NCBI GenBank assembly: GCA_945865565.1
Contig: CAMBEK010000002.1
Coordinates: 7,901-71,900, forward strand
DNA from: Pseudobacteriovorax antillogorgiicola
Lineage (GTDB): Bacteria > Bdellovibrionota_B > Oligoflexia > Oligoflexales > RGVZ01
Length of the DNA: 64,000 nucleotides
Reading direction: 5' to 3'
Shown one piece after another: positions 6,271 to 20,700 of the stretch; the first letter of the stretch is position 1, and each line of letters begins with the position of its first letter. The notes beneath the pieces are model-generated. The model made no database searches and was not told the origin of the DNA. It worked only from the letters and a program-made list of their open reading frames with translations. Position numbers and translations under genes: made by a program.

Positions 6271-6446
6271 AAGAGAGCGCTTATACGAAGTTAAGCACGA
6301 CGGAGGCGACTCAATTAGGACCATAAATTGGGGGGTTGTATTCAGCTTGAGGGTGGAGCGCATTGCGTGCGCCCCAGTTATTTGTGTCCGTTTTGCTACA
6401 TTGTCTGTTTACCAACCTGTCGTGGGCGCTGCACACAGCGAGTAAT

Positions 6447-6518
6447 GGATATTGAGCCGAAGACGAAGAATCCTTTCTTATCCCGTCATCCGGAGCCGAA
6501 GGCGAAGGATACTTGCTT
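6447..6518 (+). repeat. Two REP-like palindromic repeat units
   Basis: TGAGCCGAAGACGAAGAATCCTTTC and CCCGTCATCCGGAGCCGAAGGCGAAGGATAC; same consensus as copies at about 37.3, 49.55 and 63.2 kb. Lies between convergent genes. Confidence 0.6.
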
Positions 6519-6604
6519 CAAATTTTTGAAAAAACCGTAACCGCCATTTTTTCCTGAGAGAAATCGTATGCCAGTAGGCGTGACTATGGCCGACGGATGA
6601 CGGA

Positions 6605-7852
6605 TTAATTTTTATCCAAAGGCAATTGTTCGAAGAATATTGTGGCCGACCTGTCGGACTTGATCTGCCTGGACAGGGCTCCGCTCAGGCGAAATTCGTG
6701 CATGGACTTTAAGTAATCACCGGTTGTGGTGATCGTGATGTTCGACTTTCTACTAGTTCCTAAAATTTGTTTTTCTGAAGATTCATCCATTCCACGCTCA
6801 AGCTGTGCGACTTCTCTTACGTACCAGGTAAATTTCCCAGGCTTTAGGAAATTCAGGACGGTTGATTGTGCCCCTGAGACCCGATGGACTGTTTCTTTTC
6901 TCTGGCCATTTCCTTCCTGCTTTACAACAACTTCAAATTCACTAAGTCCAAGCTGACCTTGTTTGGATAATTCCCATGAAACGGGAATTCTCGTTGGGAA
7001 ATGAGCTCCCGCATAAATGAAGTCTTCAGGCGGGCTGGTGAGAGTAATTTGGTTTTGCCTGGTGGCCTCTCGGGCATGAATGTAGAATCTTCTCACTCCA
7101 GATTTGGCCTTCCAATCGAGAGAGGCTACTTGAAGCAGCCAAGCACCGGGCCGGAAAACCGGAATGGTCTGAACTGAGTTCTTTGTGATGCTGACTGGTG
7201 GTCCACGTTCCTCCCCCTCTGGCCACATTAATATTTGCACCTCAGGATCGGCATCCTTGTTCAAAATTTCCCAAGACACAGGAAGCATCGCAGGCAGTTC
7301 GTTAAGGTGGATGTGATTGTCCCTGCCGGGAAGATTCACTTTGATCCTGTTTTTACCCTTACCTGGTATATCCGCAAAAGCTTCACGGAAATTGGCATTC
7401 ATGATTTTTCCGAAAACAGATGATACGACAGCGTTTGATTCAGAATCCAATTTGTAGTTCTTGAATACCTGCCGGTTGATTTTCGCGCTCCGGATCAAGT
7501 CGCGTTCCAGTCGAAAGACCATTGGTGTGTTGATGTCGGCTTCGAGGCTTTTTCCAGGCCGGTCGGGGAATCCGTTCTGGCTATCGATTCTCAGGATGAG
7601 TTGCGATGCCTCGCCAACCTGGACGAGGGTCTTTTCGGGAATTGGCACACCCTCCCGCACATGCAGCCATCTGCCAGAGGAGGGCGTCCAATAAAGCACA
7701 GTACCGGACACGCTTTGCGGCGTGAAAGTCAAAAATGCCGGAGCGGCCGAGGCACGAAAGCCAAAGAATAAAAAAACAGCGAACCCGAAAAAATTGACGG
7801 AGAACGCCGCCATGGAGAGTATCGAGTAGCGTTGGGTTGATCCAGAACTCAT
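6605..7852 (-). CDS. Exported hypothetical protein, possibly FecR-like N-terminal domain followed by Ig/FN3-like beta domains
   Basis: Hydrophobic N-terminal segment, then SGTVLYW...GVPIPEKTLVQVGEASQLIL resembling the FecR start. ATG at 7852 overlaps the upstream stop (ATGA). Confidence 0.5.
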   Translation of the reverse strand: MSSGSTQRYSILSMAAFSVNFFGFAVFLFFGFRASAAPAFLTFTPQSVSGTVLYWTPSSGRWLHVREGVPIPEKTLVQVGEASQLILRIDSQNGFPDRPGKSLEADINTPMVFRLERDLIRSAKINRQVFKNYKLDSESNAVVSSVFGKIMNANFREAFADIPGKGKNRIKVNLPGRDNHIHLNELPAMLPVSWEILNKDADPEVQILMWPEGEERGPPVSITKNSVQTIPVFRPGAWLLQVASLDWKAKSGVRRFYIHAREATRQNQITLTSPPEDFIYAGAHFPTRIPVSWELSKQGQLGLSEFEVVVKQEGNGQRKETVHRVSGAQSTVLNFLKPGKFTWYVREVAQLERGMDESSEKQILGTSRKSNITITTTGDYLKSMHEFRLSGALSRQIKSDRSATIFFEQLPLDKN

Positions 7853-15993: not shown

Positions 15994-17886
15994 TTGACGG
16001 TCAAACCAGCAAAATCTTGGCTTACTTCCCAGGTCGCTGTCGTCCGGAAATTTTTGGTCGCGGATATTTCAAAGTTGACTCTTAAGGCTCTGATTTCGGC
16101 TGGTATTCTGCTGCCGGCCGCAACGGTGTTTCTGGGTTTGCCTGTGTTTGGTGTTGCTCTGGATGGACGTCAATGGGTACTTCTGAGTGTCTTCCCCATT
16201 CTGACCGGAATCGTTTCTTTGTCTATTTGGTGGATCGCGTCCGATATGTTGCCGGACTGTGGGAGCTGTAGCCTTCACGATTTGAACTCGGCCTTGGAAA
16301 AGGCCCGAGCGGTGTCTGAAAAAGGTGCCAGGCATTTGAGAGATGTTTTGGATTCAATGACGAGTTTCATTGGTGTCTTGACTCCCGAAGGAGTTGTTTT
16401 GGAGATCAATCGGTCGGCCCTCTCCGTAGCTAGTCTCAGTATGATCGATGTCGTTGGACGGAAGTTTGAGGACACCCGATGGTGGGCTTTTTCTGAAGAA
16501 TTGAAGAATCAAGTCCGGGGGATCATCCGTCGCGCAGCTGCCGGTGAACGGGTAGAAGTAGAACTAAAATACCAGACAGGAACGGGTGAGATTCGGGCTG
16601 TCGAGTTTGTCATGACTCCTTTGGTCGATCGGGAGGGCAAGGTTGAATTTTTGATTCCATCGGGAGTCGACGTGCAGTTTCGAAAATCATTTGAGGAGCA
16701 GCTTATTAAATCCCGCCTGGATGCTGAGATCGCGAATCAAGCGAAATCATCCTTTCTTGCCCACATGAGCCACGAACTCAGATCACCTTTGGGAATCATT
16801 CTTGGGTTTGTGGATCTTGCACTGGAGGAGGGCGACTGTAATAAAAAAAATCTGCATCTGGAGACAATTCATCGCAACGCCTGCCAGGTCCTCTCTCTGG
16901 TTGATGAGGTGTTGGACTTGGGGAAAATTGAGTCGGGTCACGTCAGCGTCGATATTGTTGATTTGAACGTAGAAAAATTTATATCTGAGATTGAGGTATC
17001 ACTTGGTTTAAAGGCCCGGGAGCGCGGGCTGAAATTGCAGTTTGTATTGAGTCCGGGGACGCCAAGGCAGGTGCGAACAGACCCCCTGCGCGTCAAGCAA
17101 ATACTGCTGAATCTGATCGGTAACGCAATCAAATATTCCGAAGTGGGCACGGTAGAATGCAAAGTCAGTTGGATTCCTGGAAGGGAGGGGGAGCTGTCGA
17201 AGTTGGAGTTTCAAATAACTGATACTGGGATAGGGATTTCGGCGGAAGATGCCTCAAGAATCTTTGAACCGTTCGCCAGGGGGCTTGAAGCCGAGCAGAG
17301 AAAATACCCTGGAACCGGACTTGGATTATCCCTTTCGAAACGGTTGGCTTTGCTTTTAGGTGGTGATGTTGTTTTGACTAGAAGTCAGCTAGGGGTTGGG
17401 AGCACTTTCACGTTCACCATTGAAGAGGGGAGCAAGGGTGAAGGCTTAAATTTGCCAGTTTCCGTTCCTCCGAAACGTGTAATAGGTGGGCCGGGGCGCC
17501 TATCCGGGGTGCGCGTTCTAGTCGTGGATGATGTGATTGATAACCGGATTTTGATCTCGAAATACCTTCAATCCGAGGGGGCTTCTGTGGTGACGGCATC
17601 GGGTGGCCAGGAGGCGGTCACCTTGGGGCTTGAAGATGGCTTTGATGCCATTTTGATGGACCTGTCGATGCCGGACATGTCCGGTCAGGAGGCAACGGCA
17701 GCCTTGCGGCAGAGGGGCTATAAAAAGCCGATCGTGGCTCTTACTGCCCATGCAATGAGAGAAGAAAAGGAGAAGGCACTGCAGCGCGGTTTCAACGACT
17801 ATTTAACTAAACCTGTGGTGCGTGATGTACTGGTCGAGGCTTTAAAGAAGGTTCATGAGGCGGACAGGCATTTTAGAGTGATCTAA
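15994..17886 (+). CDS. PAS-domain hybrid sensor histidine kinase/receiver
   Basis: Two TM segments, PAS, H-box FLAHMSHELRSPL, NLIGNAIKY, DTGIGI, GTGLGL and a receiver with LMDLSMP and KP. Confidence 0.95.
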   Translation: MTVKPAKSWLTSQVAVVRKFLVADISKLTLKALISAGILLPAATVFLGLPVFGVALDGRQWVLLSVFPILTGIVSLSIWWIASDMLPDCGSCSLHDLNSALEKARAVSEKGARHLRDVLDSMTSFIGVLTPEGVVLEINRSALSVASLSMIDVVGRKFEDTRWWAFSEELKNQVRGIIRRAAAGERVEVELKYQTGTGEIRAVEFVMTPLVDREGKVEFLIPSGVDVQFRKSFEEQLIKSRLDAEIANQAKSSFLAHMSHELRSPLGIILGFVDLALEEGDCNKKNLHLETIHRNACQVLSLVDEVLDLGKIESGHVSVDIVDLNVEKFISEIEVSLGLKARERGLKLQFVLSPGTPRQVRTDPLRVKQILLNLIGNAIKYSEVGTVECKVSWIPGREGELSKLEFQITDTGIGISAEDASRIFEPFARGLEAEQRKYPGTGLGLSLSKRLALLLGGDVVLTRSQLGVGSTFTFTIEEGSKGEGLNLPVSVPPKRVIGGPGRLSGVRVLVVDDVIDNRILISKYLQSEGASVVTASGGQEAVTLGLEDGFDAILMDLSMPDMSGQEATAALRQRGYKKPIVALTAHAMREEKEKALQRGFNDYLTKPVVRDVLVEALKKVHEADRHFRVI

Positions 17887-17955
17887 AACGGTAAGGGGTG
17901 TTCAGGGACATTTTTGCCTTGTGGCAAAGGCCTCAGGTGTTATCCTCGACAAACT

Positions 17956-18798
17956 ATGTGGCTACTCTTTGCAATCAACGCCGTGCTCATTTTTGGATAC
18001 GCGACTTTTTCGCTGCATTCAGACTGGATTTCCGCTTTTCCTGCATTCTCTGCAGTTTATGCTAGCGCATTTCCTTTCTTTACCCGCCTTCAGATTTTGA
18101 TCGGATTTTGGCTTTGCGTTAGAGCTTGCCAGAGGGCCATGGGCTTCCGCTGGATTTTGTTTCTGGTTGCGGCTTTTGGTATCAGCTTGACGACAGCATT
18201 CCTTGGGACTGCCTACGGCATTCCGTTCGGAAAGTATTCGTATACCGGTCTTCTCGGTTGGCGGATCGCGGGAATGGTTCCACTGTTGATTCCGGTGGGA
18301 TGGTTCAGTATGTCCGTAGGTTCTTACGTGTTGGCGCTCCAGCTTCTTGGTCCCGCCAGCATGCAGATTTTTAGGCGCACCACCAACCACTGGTACCGTT
18401 CGGCCCAAAGGGTTGCTTTGGCATCTCTTCTGTTGCTTGCTTTGGGGATCACGCTTGAACCTGTCATGAGCACTTTGGTGCCTTGCTGGATTTGGGAGGG
18501 CTCTGGTGCATTTTTCTTCCCTCCTGCAGTACGCAACCTCTTGGCCTGGATGGTCACCGGCGTTTTCATCTTTGTCAGTTTTGAGTTTTTTCGTATGCGC
18601 GATGGGAGCCATCGTTTTGAGCTCTCGTGGGCCCCGAAATTCTACATGCTTTATTTTTCAATGCCGCTGGGTTTGCTGATTGTGGGTGCAGTTTGGCTGC
18701 CGGTTGCCCTGGCTCTGGCAATCTTATTGGGTTGTGATTTGTTTGCCCGAAAGAAGGGTGCGATGAAACGTGGCATATTCATCCGCACAAGATCCTAG
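17956..18798 (+). CDS. Carotenoid biosynthesis membrane protein (CruF-like hydratase family)
   Basis: GIPFGKYSYTGLLG...VPLLIPVGW and NLLAW motifs in a multi-TM protein. The conserved acidic residues of the family look partly altered. Confidence 0.7.
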   Translation: MWLLFAINAVLIFGYATFSLHSDWISAFPAFSAVYASAFPFFTRLQILIGFWLCVRACQRAMGFRWILFLVAAFGISLTTAFLGTAYGIPFGKYSYTGLLGWRIAGMVPLLIPVGWFSMSVGSYVLALQLLGPASMQIFRRTTNHWYRSAQRVALASLLLLALGITLEPVMSTLVPCWIWEGSGAFFFPPAVRNLLAWMVTGVFIFVSFEFFRMRDGSHRFELSWAPKFYMLYFSMPLGLLIVGAVWLPVALALAILLGCDLFARKKGAMKRGIFIRTRS

Positions 18799-19421
18799 TT
18801 CGCTTCCATCGGAATTGAGTCTTCCGATTTCGAATTGATGCGCGCGATCCAATAGATCAAAATGCCGTAGAAAACCTTGGTGGCAATGTCCGAGGTGGCG
18901 TAGCCAATCTGAATGCTGGTCATGTGCAGCTCTGGATTTATGCCAAAGAGCGGTAGCAAAAAGGAAATCGGGTAGAGCACCAGAGTCACAATGAGCAGAA
19001 GACAGAGGATTATTTTGCAGGCTTTTGTTTTATCTGGCTGCGTGTCAACCGCTTGGCCGATTTTTCCCCAGAATGCCTCGCGCAAATTTTTCCCAATGAC
19101 GCCAACGAATGCTATCAACGCCAAGGGGGCGGTGAGCATCCAGTCAAACATGTGAAGGGCATTGTTGAACGGTCTGCCTGATGGAACATAGGTGGTGCTG
19201 CCAGACATGATGAATGCATCTTTCCAGCTGCTCGTGATGCAAAAGTAGTTGTAGCAGGTGATTGCGACAATTGCCGAGGCCACCAGCAAGGCCACGCGGT
19301 ATTTTGGACCTACTTGAGAGCGAGCGCCGAATAAGAAAAGAAACGCTGCTCCCGTTGCGGCGATGGTAAGGGAAAAAAAATTACAAACTAACGCGAATTG
19401 GCCAGCGCTTAGTTCTGTCAT
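18795..19421 (-). CDS. Xanthorhodopsin/Gloeobacter-rhodopsin-like opsin with internal deletion of about two helices (208 aa)
   Basis: MTELSAGQF...KYRVAL...FNNALHMFDWMLTAP (helix C)...LYPI (helix F)...QIGYATSDIATKVFYG (helix G, DxxxK). GGAG 8 nt upstream of ATG 19421. Confidence 0.85.
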   Translation of the reverse strand: MTELSAGQFALVCNFFSLTIAATGAAFLFLFGARSQVGPKYRVALLVASAIVAITCYNYFCITSSWKDAFIMSGSTTYVPSGRPFNNALHMFDWMLTAPLALIAFVGVIGKNLREAFWGKIGQAVDTQPDKTKACKIILCLLLIVTLVLYPISFLLPLFGINPELHMTSIQIGYATSDIATKVFYGILIYWIARINSKSEDSIPMEAN

Positions 19422-19497
19422 CCTTGACACTCCAAGTCATGGTTTTTGAAACAACTTTGTTTGCTTCAATAATGTTGCCATAACTAATTTACACCAA

Positions 19498-20700
19498 TCA
19501 CCACTCGGAGTCGTCGATCACTTTTGGCAGTGCAGAGTTTCGGTGTCCCGAAGCCTTGCCGGTCGCGTGAGCTTTGTGGGGAGATTTGTTTTTGCTCTGC
19601 GCAGCCACATGATGCTCAAGCTCCTCGTGCGTCAATAGTTTGGCGCTAAGTCCGTCTCGTTGATTCTCAGTGCTCTTGTGACGGGCCACTGCAGTCCCAC
19701 CATCAGCACTGCAATCGACTAAAAAAGTAAACACATCAAGCTGCCCAGGGATATTCCCTTTGCGTACGAGATGGCATTCGCGGTGACCGCCAATAGCGGT
19801 GTTGCCGCCCTCGCTACGAACAAGTTCTCCGCCGTCGTGGCAATGCGCCTGGACGATGCCGTCGGCATTGTTTTGGTCGTCAGCCCAGCAGGCATCGTGG
19901 CCACCGTGTCCGCCGCTGATGTGGGATGAGTTTTCGGTGCCCGTCGTCTTTCCGCTCGGATTCCAAATTCCCGCTGATGCAGCAGTTTGCAGTGGCAGGG
20001 TACACAAGGACCCCTTCAGCTCCTTGCGGCTAGCCACCTCGTTGCAAACCTTGAAATTGACCTGTGGATCTTTACCGTCTGCAATCCTTTGAGGTAGCAA
20101 AGGGCGCCCCGTCAAGCGGCCTCCTTCACAACAACTGCCAGCATTCCCACAGGTAGGTACGTAGGCCAAGAGGTTGCACGCGCCGCCTTCCTTTCCCCCG
20201 CTATCAGCAAGGTAGCCAGGGATCAGTGCAAAGGCTTCTCGAGTCTTCGATTTATTGAGAGGCCAACCACACTCTTCCGCGCCGCTCATTGCGACCTTGG
20301 AAATCCCTTCGATGCGTTTTTTGCTTTCATGGAACATTCCCAACAGGGCCGGATGGCCATAGGCATCACATCTGTTGGAAGGGCACGGGCAGTATTCTTT
20401 CCGCTGACCTGGCCCGTCCTTGATCAGTACTAACGATCCGGGGGTCAGGGCGGTTGTGCGGCAAAATTCGCCGACGCCAACTCCAGATGGCACCAACGGC
20501 GGGCTTTCCCGGCTGGCTGTGTCTCTCTCCGGGAGAAATCCGGGGCAATATGGTGTGTCCTCGAGCGCCAAATCGGCATTTTTTGGGCTGACAAGACCGG
20601 CTACCGGTGTTTTTGCGGCAAAACGTTGCACCTCCACGCAAGAAACCAAGCTAAGCGCGGTCATCCCGACCAAGATTGCAACTACCGGTTCGCGACCCAT
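19498..20700 (-). CDS. Cys-rich, His-rich-tailed hypothetical lipoprotein
   Basis: Lipobox-like LSLVSC after a hydrophobic stretch from ATG 20700; many Cys; no recognised domain. Confidence 0.6.
   Translation of the reverse strand: MGREPVVAILVGMTALSLVSCVEVQRFAAKTPVAGLVSPKNADLALEDTPYCPGFLPERDTASRESPPLVPSGVGVGEFCRTTALTPGSLVLIKDGPGQRKEYCPCPSNRCDAYGHPALLGMFHESKKRIEGISKVAMSGAEECGWPLNKSKTREAFALIPGYLADSGGKEGGACNLLAYVPTCGNAGSCCEGGRLTGRPLLPQRIADGKDPQVNFKVCNEVASRKELKGSLCTLPLQTAASAGIWNPSGKTTGTENSSHISGGHGGHDACWADDQNNADGIVQAHCHDGGELVRSEGGNTAIGGHRECHLVRKGNIPGQLDVFTFLVDCSADGGTAVARHKSTENQRDGLSAKLLTHEELEHHVAAQSKNKSPHKAHATGKASGHRNSALPKVIDDSEW

Follow-up and report, generated by a model that had tools for sequence, protein, structure and literature searches.

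We describe a short opsin from Pseudobacteriovorax antillogorgiicola, encoded in a 64,000-nt stretch of DNA (hereafter the window; GCA_945865565.1, contig CAMBEK010000002.1, forward-strand positions 7,901-71,900), that derives from xanthorhodopsin (XR) by the loss of transmembrane helices D and E. It is a rhodopsin-derived protein that breaks the defining seven-helix architecture of its family while under selection, and the evidence that it is a real, selectively maintained paralog of the XR of its lineage is good: its frame is open in five diverged lineages, both halves of the protein are under purifying selection, and a distinctive set of residue replacements is fixed alongside a retained Schiff-base core. 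The gene converges on a second copy of a CruF-like carotenoid hydratase gene, whose product we call CruF2. On balance we favour the interpretation that the short opsin has been repurposed as a non-pumping protein, probably still binding retinal, that works with CruF2 as a sensor or regulator.

Gene structure, origin and distribution of the short opsin

The gene lies on the reverse strand, and its product begins with MTELSAGQ. As the initial annotation had it, the 208-aa open reading frame (ORF), running from 19421 to 18795, has its own ribosome-binding site; a scan of promoters and terminators returned nothing exceeding chance. The features of the gene are as follows.

18795..19421 (-): coding sequence of the five-helix opsin (P0001), 208 aa, stop included (ORF list, Pfam and PDB matches, alignment)
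18876..18878 (-): codon of K182, the Schiff-base Lys of helix G (alignments)
19035..19094 (-): C-to-F linker (residues 110-129; GKNLREAFWGKIGQAVDTQP), left as a scar by the loss of the 45 D-E codons (alignments, model)
19143..19154 (-): codons H90-M91-F92-D93, with an invariant His in place of the helix-C Arg, beside the kept counterion Asp (alignments)
19430..19433 (-): Shine-Dalgarno-like GGAG, 8 nt 5' of the ATG at 19421 (read from sequence)

Against the Pfam family Bac_rhodopsin (PF01036) the protein scored 47.3 bits in two stretches, above the curated cut-off of 24.6; none of the NCBIfam models matched it. A phmmer search of the PDB likewise aligned it to XR (3ddl; E=6.8e-34) in two blocks, query residues 3-122 with XR residues 7-127 and query residues 119-200 with XR residues 172-258, in keeping with the earlier description of a sequence that follows the xanthorhodopsin pattern through helices A-C and then jumps to helices F-G. 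The predicted helices are A (residues 6-36), B (39-69), C (88-109), F (130-159) and G (167-199), with a B-C beta-hairpin at residues 70-80, so that the protein has five helices instead of the seven of type-1 rhodopsins, as judged against 50 full-length relatives. The Schiff-base Lys of the last helix is present, K182 aligning with the invariant Lys of the full-length XRs.

A full-length counterpart is encoded in the same genome, an assembly of 2.5 Mb in 44 contigs (~90% complete) of which the window represents contig C2, and whose rhodopsin has its closest named relatives in freshwater metagenome-assembled genomes (MAGs) labelled Oligoflexales, phylum Bdellovibrionota. Contig C6 of this genome carries a 253-aa XR with every pump residue (the DTE motif, the Arg, the helix-B His and the helix-F Trp). 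The short opsin is 50% identical to this protein over the aligned residues (43% amino acid identity across the whole alignment) and lacks, in one stretch running from AIAAF to ILWGKL, exactly 45 residues of it, those of helices D and E; across the gap the full-length protein reads ..PKNQREGLFGKL[AIAAF...YILMILWGKL]GTAIESQPGEAK.. and the short form ..GKNLREAFWGKIGQAVDTQPDKTK... The loss is thus as clean as the initial annotation had stated, with neither a frameshift nor a remnant of the missing segment, though slightly smaller than the 50 or so residues given there. Because the end of helix C and the start of helix F both lie on the cytoplasmic side, the topology of helices F and G is preserved, a further point on which the earlier description holds. 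In the DNA encoding the full-length protein the missing 135 bp are bounded by the near-repeats CTCTTTGGCAAACT and CTCTGGGGCAAGCT, encoding ..FGKL and ..WGKL, and their presence at both ends suggests that the D-E loss may have arisen by microhomology-mediated deletion. We also considered whether the gene might be split, with helices D and E supplied in trans, but a tblastn search with the 64-aa D-E segment of the genome's own XR matched only the full-length gene on C6. A candidate remnant in the sister genome G004 (a 47-aa match at G004:C127) proved to be the N-terminus of a full-length XR cut by a contig end.

The initial annotation had allowed for a deletion private to this strain, which turned out not to be the case, at least five diverged lineages (64-92% identity) carrying the short form. 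A word-indexed search retrieved four more short proteins with BLASTP local identities of 92%, 73%, 74% and 64% and lengths of 208, 208, 198 and 186 aa, and the short architecture was found in P0002-P0005 and 11 further cluster members. By exact look-up there are 16 short-form members in four 90%-identity clusters, drawn from NCBI, JGI, ENA and Logan assemblies; P0003 occurs on 19 contigs and P0001 on 5, and the short form overall on dozens of independently assembled contigs. One member has been deposited as a ‘hypothetical protein’ (NBQ52260.1). When 1.84 billion representatives were searched exhaustively with HMMER, the short architecture and the residue pattern described below came together in only one cluster at 50% identity. 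A first scan of GTDB representative genomes revealed no short form elsewhere; among 40 relatives it was present only in the genome of the window, and in the five further genomes of the genus that gave rhodopsin matches, each match was a full-length XR.

In a maximum-likelihood tree the five short sequences form one clade (support 100/100) on a stem of 0.77 changes per site, nested (100/100) among the full-length XRs of the genus and family, whose own branches are mostly no longer than 0.07. A single nested clade on a long stem points to one origin, out of the XR of this lineage, and to a burst of change thereafter.

Selective constraint, residue changes and predicted structure

To the possibility, raised in the initial annotation, that the short opsin is a decaying pump gene, the pattern of substitution gives a clear answer. 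Pairwise Nei-Gojobori estimates of the ratio of non-synonymous to synonymous substitution rates (dN/dS) for diverged pairs of the short form (dS 0.44-0.92) were 0.19-0.37, as opposed to the values near 1 that had been named as the sign of a pseudogene, and each half of the protein lay significantly below 1: helices A-C at 0.12-0.23 (p <=1e-6) and helices F-G at 0.17-0.6 (p of 1e-4 to 1e-8 for the more diverged pairs). The linker, at roughly 0.3-1, was not significantly below 1, and it varies in sequence and length among lineages, yet always in frame, the three length variants (208, 198 and 186 aa) differing by whole codons, namely 10 and 22. Under simulated neutral change, the share of replicates with an open ORF fell from 2.5% at 0.2 substitutions per site to 0.2% at 0.4 and 0.06% at 0.8, whereas the frame is open in all five lineages. 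For comparison, dN/dS was ~0.01-0.12 for the full-length XR across the genus and 0.03-0.2 for flanking genes. The open frames, the in-frame indels and the dN/dS values below 1 together indicate that the short opsin is kept by selection, albeit less tightly than the pump, and lead us to reject the notion of a decaying gene.

We compared the five short representatives with 50 full-length XRs at those alignment columns where at least 90% of the full-length proteins agree. Thirteen positions, each at least 92% conserved in the full-length proteins, are fixed to one new residue in all five short ones: Y13C, A55T, R61C, D87N, R90H, V92F, E104A, L111K, W147L, G148V, Y154F, A177S and A181T. In addition, the helix-B H58 is replaced by Asn, or by Ser in one lineage. 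H58 and R90, the helix-B His and helix-C Arg of the pumps, are 100% conserved in full-length XRs; the DTE pump motif, whose Glu is likewise invariant in the 50 full-length XRs, reads D93-T97-A104 (DTA) in all five short representatives. Retained, on the other hand, are D93, W94, T97, P99, Y150, P151, D178 and K182, and with them the greater part of helices A-B and of the B-C hairpin. The Lys at 182 is shared by all five short and all 50 full-length sequences, and K182, D93, D178, T97, Y150 and P151 are invariant in the five representatives despite the relaxed overall constraint. The alignments bear out the residue assignments made from the single sequence, that is, the replacement of the Arg by His (H90), of the donor Glu by Ala (A104), of the helix-B His by Asn (N58) and of the helix-F Trp by Leu (L147), and the retention of the counterions D93 (in MFDW) and D178 (in SDIATK), of T97 and of K182. 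In what we take to be the equivalent bacteriorhodopsin numbering, R82, D96, W182 and W189 are replaced and A215 has become Thr, and presumably D85, T89, Y185, P186, D212 and K216 are the residues retained.

Structure prediction, which had been proposed for the monomer, yielded a fold compatible with XR. With an alignment of 55 sequences as input (five short and 50 full-length), AlphaFold2 returned a five-helix model with a mean predicted local distance difference test score (pLDDT) of 88.3 and a predicted template modelling score (pTM) of 0.84, in which the linker is of low confidence (pLDDT 54-63). Superposed on XR 3ddl (query-normalised TM-score 0.85, root-mean-square deviation 2.4 Å), helices A, B, C, F and G take their native places and the D-E slot is empty. 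The carotenoid antenna of XR binds on helices E and F, a Gly of helix E being essential (PMC9151804); with helix E absent, the helix-E half of this site is gone.

CruF2 and the surrounding locus

The genes next to the short opsin, and the fusion gene beside the canonical XR, are listed here.

15994..17886 (+): hybrid histidine kinase (two transmembrane segments, PAS, HisKA, HATPase, REC), in the same direction as CruF2 and 69 nt upstream of it
17956..18798 (+): CruF2, a CruF-like carotenoid 1',2'-hydratase paralog of 280 aa from the ATG at 17956 (PF04240, 3.2e-34)
19498..20700 (-): 400-aa Cys/His-rich predicted lipoprotein, directly upstream of the opsin and co-directional with it
L112 8053-10143 (contig C6 of the same genome, G000): 696-aa fusion ORF of lycopene cyclase (PF05834) and beta-carotene 15,15'-dioxygenase (PF15461), beside the canonical XR

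CruF2, for which an alternative upstream TTG start at 17914 is possible, converges on the opsin such that both TAG stops overlap in CTAG (18795-18798). It scored 119 bits against PF04240, above the cut-off, and its best NCBIfam matches are the CruF equivalogs, at 109.5 against a cut-off of 400. CruF2 duplicates the canonical CruF of C6, with which it shares 53% identity; in six same-genus representative genomes that we searched, CruF is single-copy in four and absent from two. Akin to the opsin tree, the CruF2 tree shows one clade on a long stem (0.68) nested with the CruFs of the genus and family, and its dN/dS is ~0.1. The arrangement lipoprotein -> opsin -> <- CruF2 recurs in every lineage with the short opsin, the most divergent ones included.

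The canonical cluster is convergent as well, in the order XR -> <- blh <- GT2 <- CruF. Given this shared orientation, the opsin-CruF2 pair looks like a duplicated cluster from which the middle is missing, and by this comparison of gene orders the two genes look to have been co-duplicated from it. Besides the XR, contig C6 encodes the CrtY-Blh fusion, the glycosyltransferase GT2, the CruF-like hydratase, CrtB, CrtI and a geranylgeranyl pyrophosphate (GGPP) synthase, a gene set from which we infer that the cell can make retinal and, probably, a hydroxylated or glycosylated carotenoid.

Two genomes of the same genus, G003 and G006, instead carry an inorganic pyrophosphatase gene (ppa) and a 316-aa gene between the lipoprotein and kinase genes (L117 5519-7047 in G003; L118 514-2008 in G006, where the 316-aa gene is split into two frames). 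The opsin and CruF2 genes thus behave as a cassette, and the lipoprotein, a CBS protein and the kinase were there first. A functional link of the opsin to any of these three neighbours, as synteny might suggest, is weakened by the same flanks in G003 and G006 without the cassette. The lipoprotein has the lipobox LVSC, is 77-96% identical among relatives with a dN/dS of ~0.15, and occurs in relatives without the opsin too; it matched no Pfam or NCBIfam model. No Htr/MCP-type transducer accompanies the opsin, and the neighbouring hybrid kinase is found at the same locus in opsin-less relatives, so that a dedicated transducer is not apparent.

The kinase itself varies in two respects. A much longer N-terminus with multiple transmembrane segments sets the kinases of G003 and G006 apart from that of the window: the protein has 852 aa in G003 and, on a contig that stops within it, at least 758 aa in G006, against 630 aa here. 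The gene of the window (15994-17886) is 99.7% identical to that of another locus, L001 (9536-11428), with a dS of 0.004, as opposed to 0.25-0.67 for the flanking genes; a near-identical kinase amid diverged flanks suggests recent recombination of this gene between lineages.

Functional interpretation and relation to known rhodopsins

The short opsin has lost four pump residues (proton donor, helix-C Arg, helix-B His and helix-F Trp) along with the helix-E half of the antenna site, and would therefore no longer operate as an XR-type proton pump. The loss of the pump residues together with the retention of the Schiff-base core is what would be expected of a repurposed retinal-binding opsin and not of a retinal-free scaffold. 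The suggestion of a repurposed non-pumping opsin, one of two put forward from the sequence at the outset, thereby gains support from the 13 fixed replacements and from the chromophore core of Lys, Asp, Thr, Tyr and Pro that is kept. The history that we propose would begin with the duplication of a canonical cluster (XR -> <- crtY-blh <- GT2 <- CruF) and the loss of its middle, leaving opsin -> <- CruF2; this pair would have been set as a cassette between the lipoprotein gene and the histidine-kinase gene, and an in-frame 135-bp deletion between the near-repeats would have removed helices D and E from the opsin copy. Both genes may then have passed through a burst of change before coming under purifying selection. 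Helices D and E form the wall around the ionone ring of retinal. The present-day opsin probably still binds retinal, with the ionone-ring side open to the membrane, and we propose that it serves the membrane enzyme CruF2 as a sensor of chromophore or light or as a regulatory partner, thereby controlling a carotenoid branch. As a precedent, bacterio-opsin inhibits lycopene elongase in Halobacterium (Dummer et al., 2011, as cited in PMC6212597).

Several observations weigh against this interpretation. The constraint on the short opsin is five- to ten-fold weaker than that on the full-length XR, and the closest pair, the window and L005, gives a dN/dS of 0.63, based on few changes. Positions of the retinal pocket are altered (L101A/G, W147L, Y154F), and these changes, combined with the loss of helices D and E as holders of the ionone ring, mean that stable retinal binding is not assured. 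When AlphaFold2 was given the five short sequences alone the pLDDT dropped to 45, which is uninformative; the model described above therefore speaks for compatibility with five-helix packing and is not independent evidence for it. The adjacency of opsin and CruF2 could be mere inheritance from the ancestral cluster. Finally, one NCBI MAG allele (L121; GCA_009919565.1, RGBO01000046.1), otherwise 98% identical to L122, has a further 113-bp deletion that removes helix G and the Lys; in this allele the adjacent histidine kinase has a 76-bp deletion and CruF2 is intact. Either opsin and kinase would be decaying jointly in one population, where the opsin would then be dispensable, or the assembly is in error.

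A more specific proposal, which we advance tentatively and hold to be more doubtful, is that the protein is a five-helix rhodopsin with a retinal Schiff base whose open D-E face is filled by CruF2, a carotenoid or a neighbouring protomer, and that it may form, with the enzyme, a complex gated by light or retinal that controls carotenoid hydration.

The short opsin might instead be a modulatory subunit that joins homo- or hetero-pentamers with the full-length XR and tunes pump activity, stability or antenna loading. Pentamers of the XR type are held together by helices A, B and C and the B-C loop, with D and E at the rim (PMC6677831), and it is this interface part, helices A-C with the B-C hairpin, that is the best conserved of the short opsin; a full-length partner, the 50% identical XR, is moreover encoded in the same genome. 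The helix-B His that faces the neighbouring protomer is, however, replaced (H58N/S), and the strict co-inheritance and parallel divergence with CruF2 would be left unexplained, for which reasons we regard such a role as unlikely.

Slightly harder still to sustain is a retinal-independent function, be it the binding of carotenoids or lipids or a structural partnership with CruF2, in which the Lys and Asp residues would be kept for structure only. The lost ionone-ring pocket, the altered pocket residues listed above and the linked carotenoid enzyme would all fit such a role, but it does not sit well with the invariance, under relaxed constraint, of the six core residues from D93 to K182. To our knowledge, moreover, the retinal-free relatives of rhodopsins have lost the Lys.

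Continued light-driven ion transport by the five-helix protein, perhaps in oligomers whose open face is covered by neighbouring protomers or a partner protein, seems to us highly improbable. In type-1 pumps it is mainly helices B, C, F and G that line the proton path, and the short form retains the two Asp residues as well as the Thr and Lys; yet it has replacements at the donor Glu, at the Arg and at the helix-B His and helix-F Trp, the tblastn search found no D-E-encoding fragment elsewhere in the genome, and a canonical pump, very strongly constrained, is already present in the cell. Least probable of all, and strongly disfavoured, is a pseudogene (a dead deletion derivative) or a mis-assembled full-length gene, an explanation to which the relaxed constraint relative to XR, the further-deleted allele and the singleton D-E-less rhodopsins elsewhere that keep their pump motifs and look like recent deletions lend some colour, but which runs counter to five lineages with open frames and in-frame indels only at a dS of up to 0.9, to dN/dS significantly below 1 on either side of the deletion, to dozens of independent contigs from different assemblers, and to a full-length gene at a different locus with 43% amino acid identity.

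Among known systems, the XR and Gloeobacter rhodopsin pumps (3ddl, 6nwd and the genome's own 253-aa XR) are the direct evolutionary parent of the short opsin, which shares with them the MTEL.. N-terminus, the B-C beta-hairpin, the helix-C D/T, the helix-F Y-P and the helix-G D...K. It departs from them in its five transmembrane helices, in DTA instead of DTE, in the Arg to His, His to Asn and Trp to Leu replacements, in the missing helix-E antenna half and in a five- to ten-fold higher dN/dS. The favoured reading, a non-pumping opsin that would act with CruF2, resembles the case of Halobacterium salinarum, in which bacterio-opsin acts on a membrane carotenoid enzyme, lycopene elongase (Dummer et al., 2011, in the form in which PMC6212597 relates it); there, however, the opsin is the apoprotein of a seven-helix pump, whereas here a dedicated five-helix paralog would be paired with its own enzyme paralog, and the interaction is suggested by linkage and parallel evolution. 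Like flotillin-associated rhodopsin (FArhodopsin; PMC10308929; PDB 9r21, 9r23), a proteorhodopsin paralog, the short opsin accompanies a bona fide pump in its genome as an additional rhodopsin whose functional residues have diverged and whose linkage to a non-rhodopsin partner gene is conserved, but FArhodopsin keeps seven helices and its partner is a flotillin, not a carotenoid enzyme. The SRII-HtrII sensory rhodopsins offer a possible likeness as non-pumping opsins that signal through helices F and G. The A181T replacement, of the Ala before the Lys by Thr, presumably corresponds to T204 of pSRII. In contrast to SRII-HtrII, the short opsin lacks an Htr/MCP-type transducer and has five helices instead of seven, and the adjacent kinase predates the cassette.

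All characterised microbial rhodopsins known to us have seven helices. In the literature we found no description of a five-helix microbial rhodopsin, only passing mention of ‘truncated’ rhodopsin genes in strains R-8282 and RQ-24 (PMC3587595). If our reading is correct, rhodopsins in nature can depart from the seven-helix rule, and independent D-E deletions in other rhodopsin lineages suggest that they may do so repeatedly. The short opsin also raises the questions of what the minimal retinal-binding fold is, by what route opsin paralogs reach non-pump roles, and whether bacteria control pigment synthesis through dedicated opsins. For protein engineering it would be a compact scaffold of natural origin, and the opsin-CruF2 pair, being small and of only two genes, lends itself to direct tests in E. 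coli.

At least three other, unrelated metagenome rhodopsin lineages also jump from helix C to the E-F loop (L119 83-829, P0028; L120 ~6340-6990, P0144, whose open frame runs 5' of the called start; and P0051/P0167/P0168). They comprise two singletons and one small cluster, and all keep the DTE motif, the Arg and the Trp. From these comparisons the D-E deletion seems to recur, but its long persistence and remodelling seem confined to the Oligoflexales family. A separate match to part of the short opsin, its residues 59-97 (the end of helix B and the B-C hairpin), was seen in 15 separate stretches of a 2502-aa protein (P0129).

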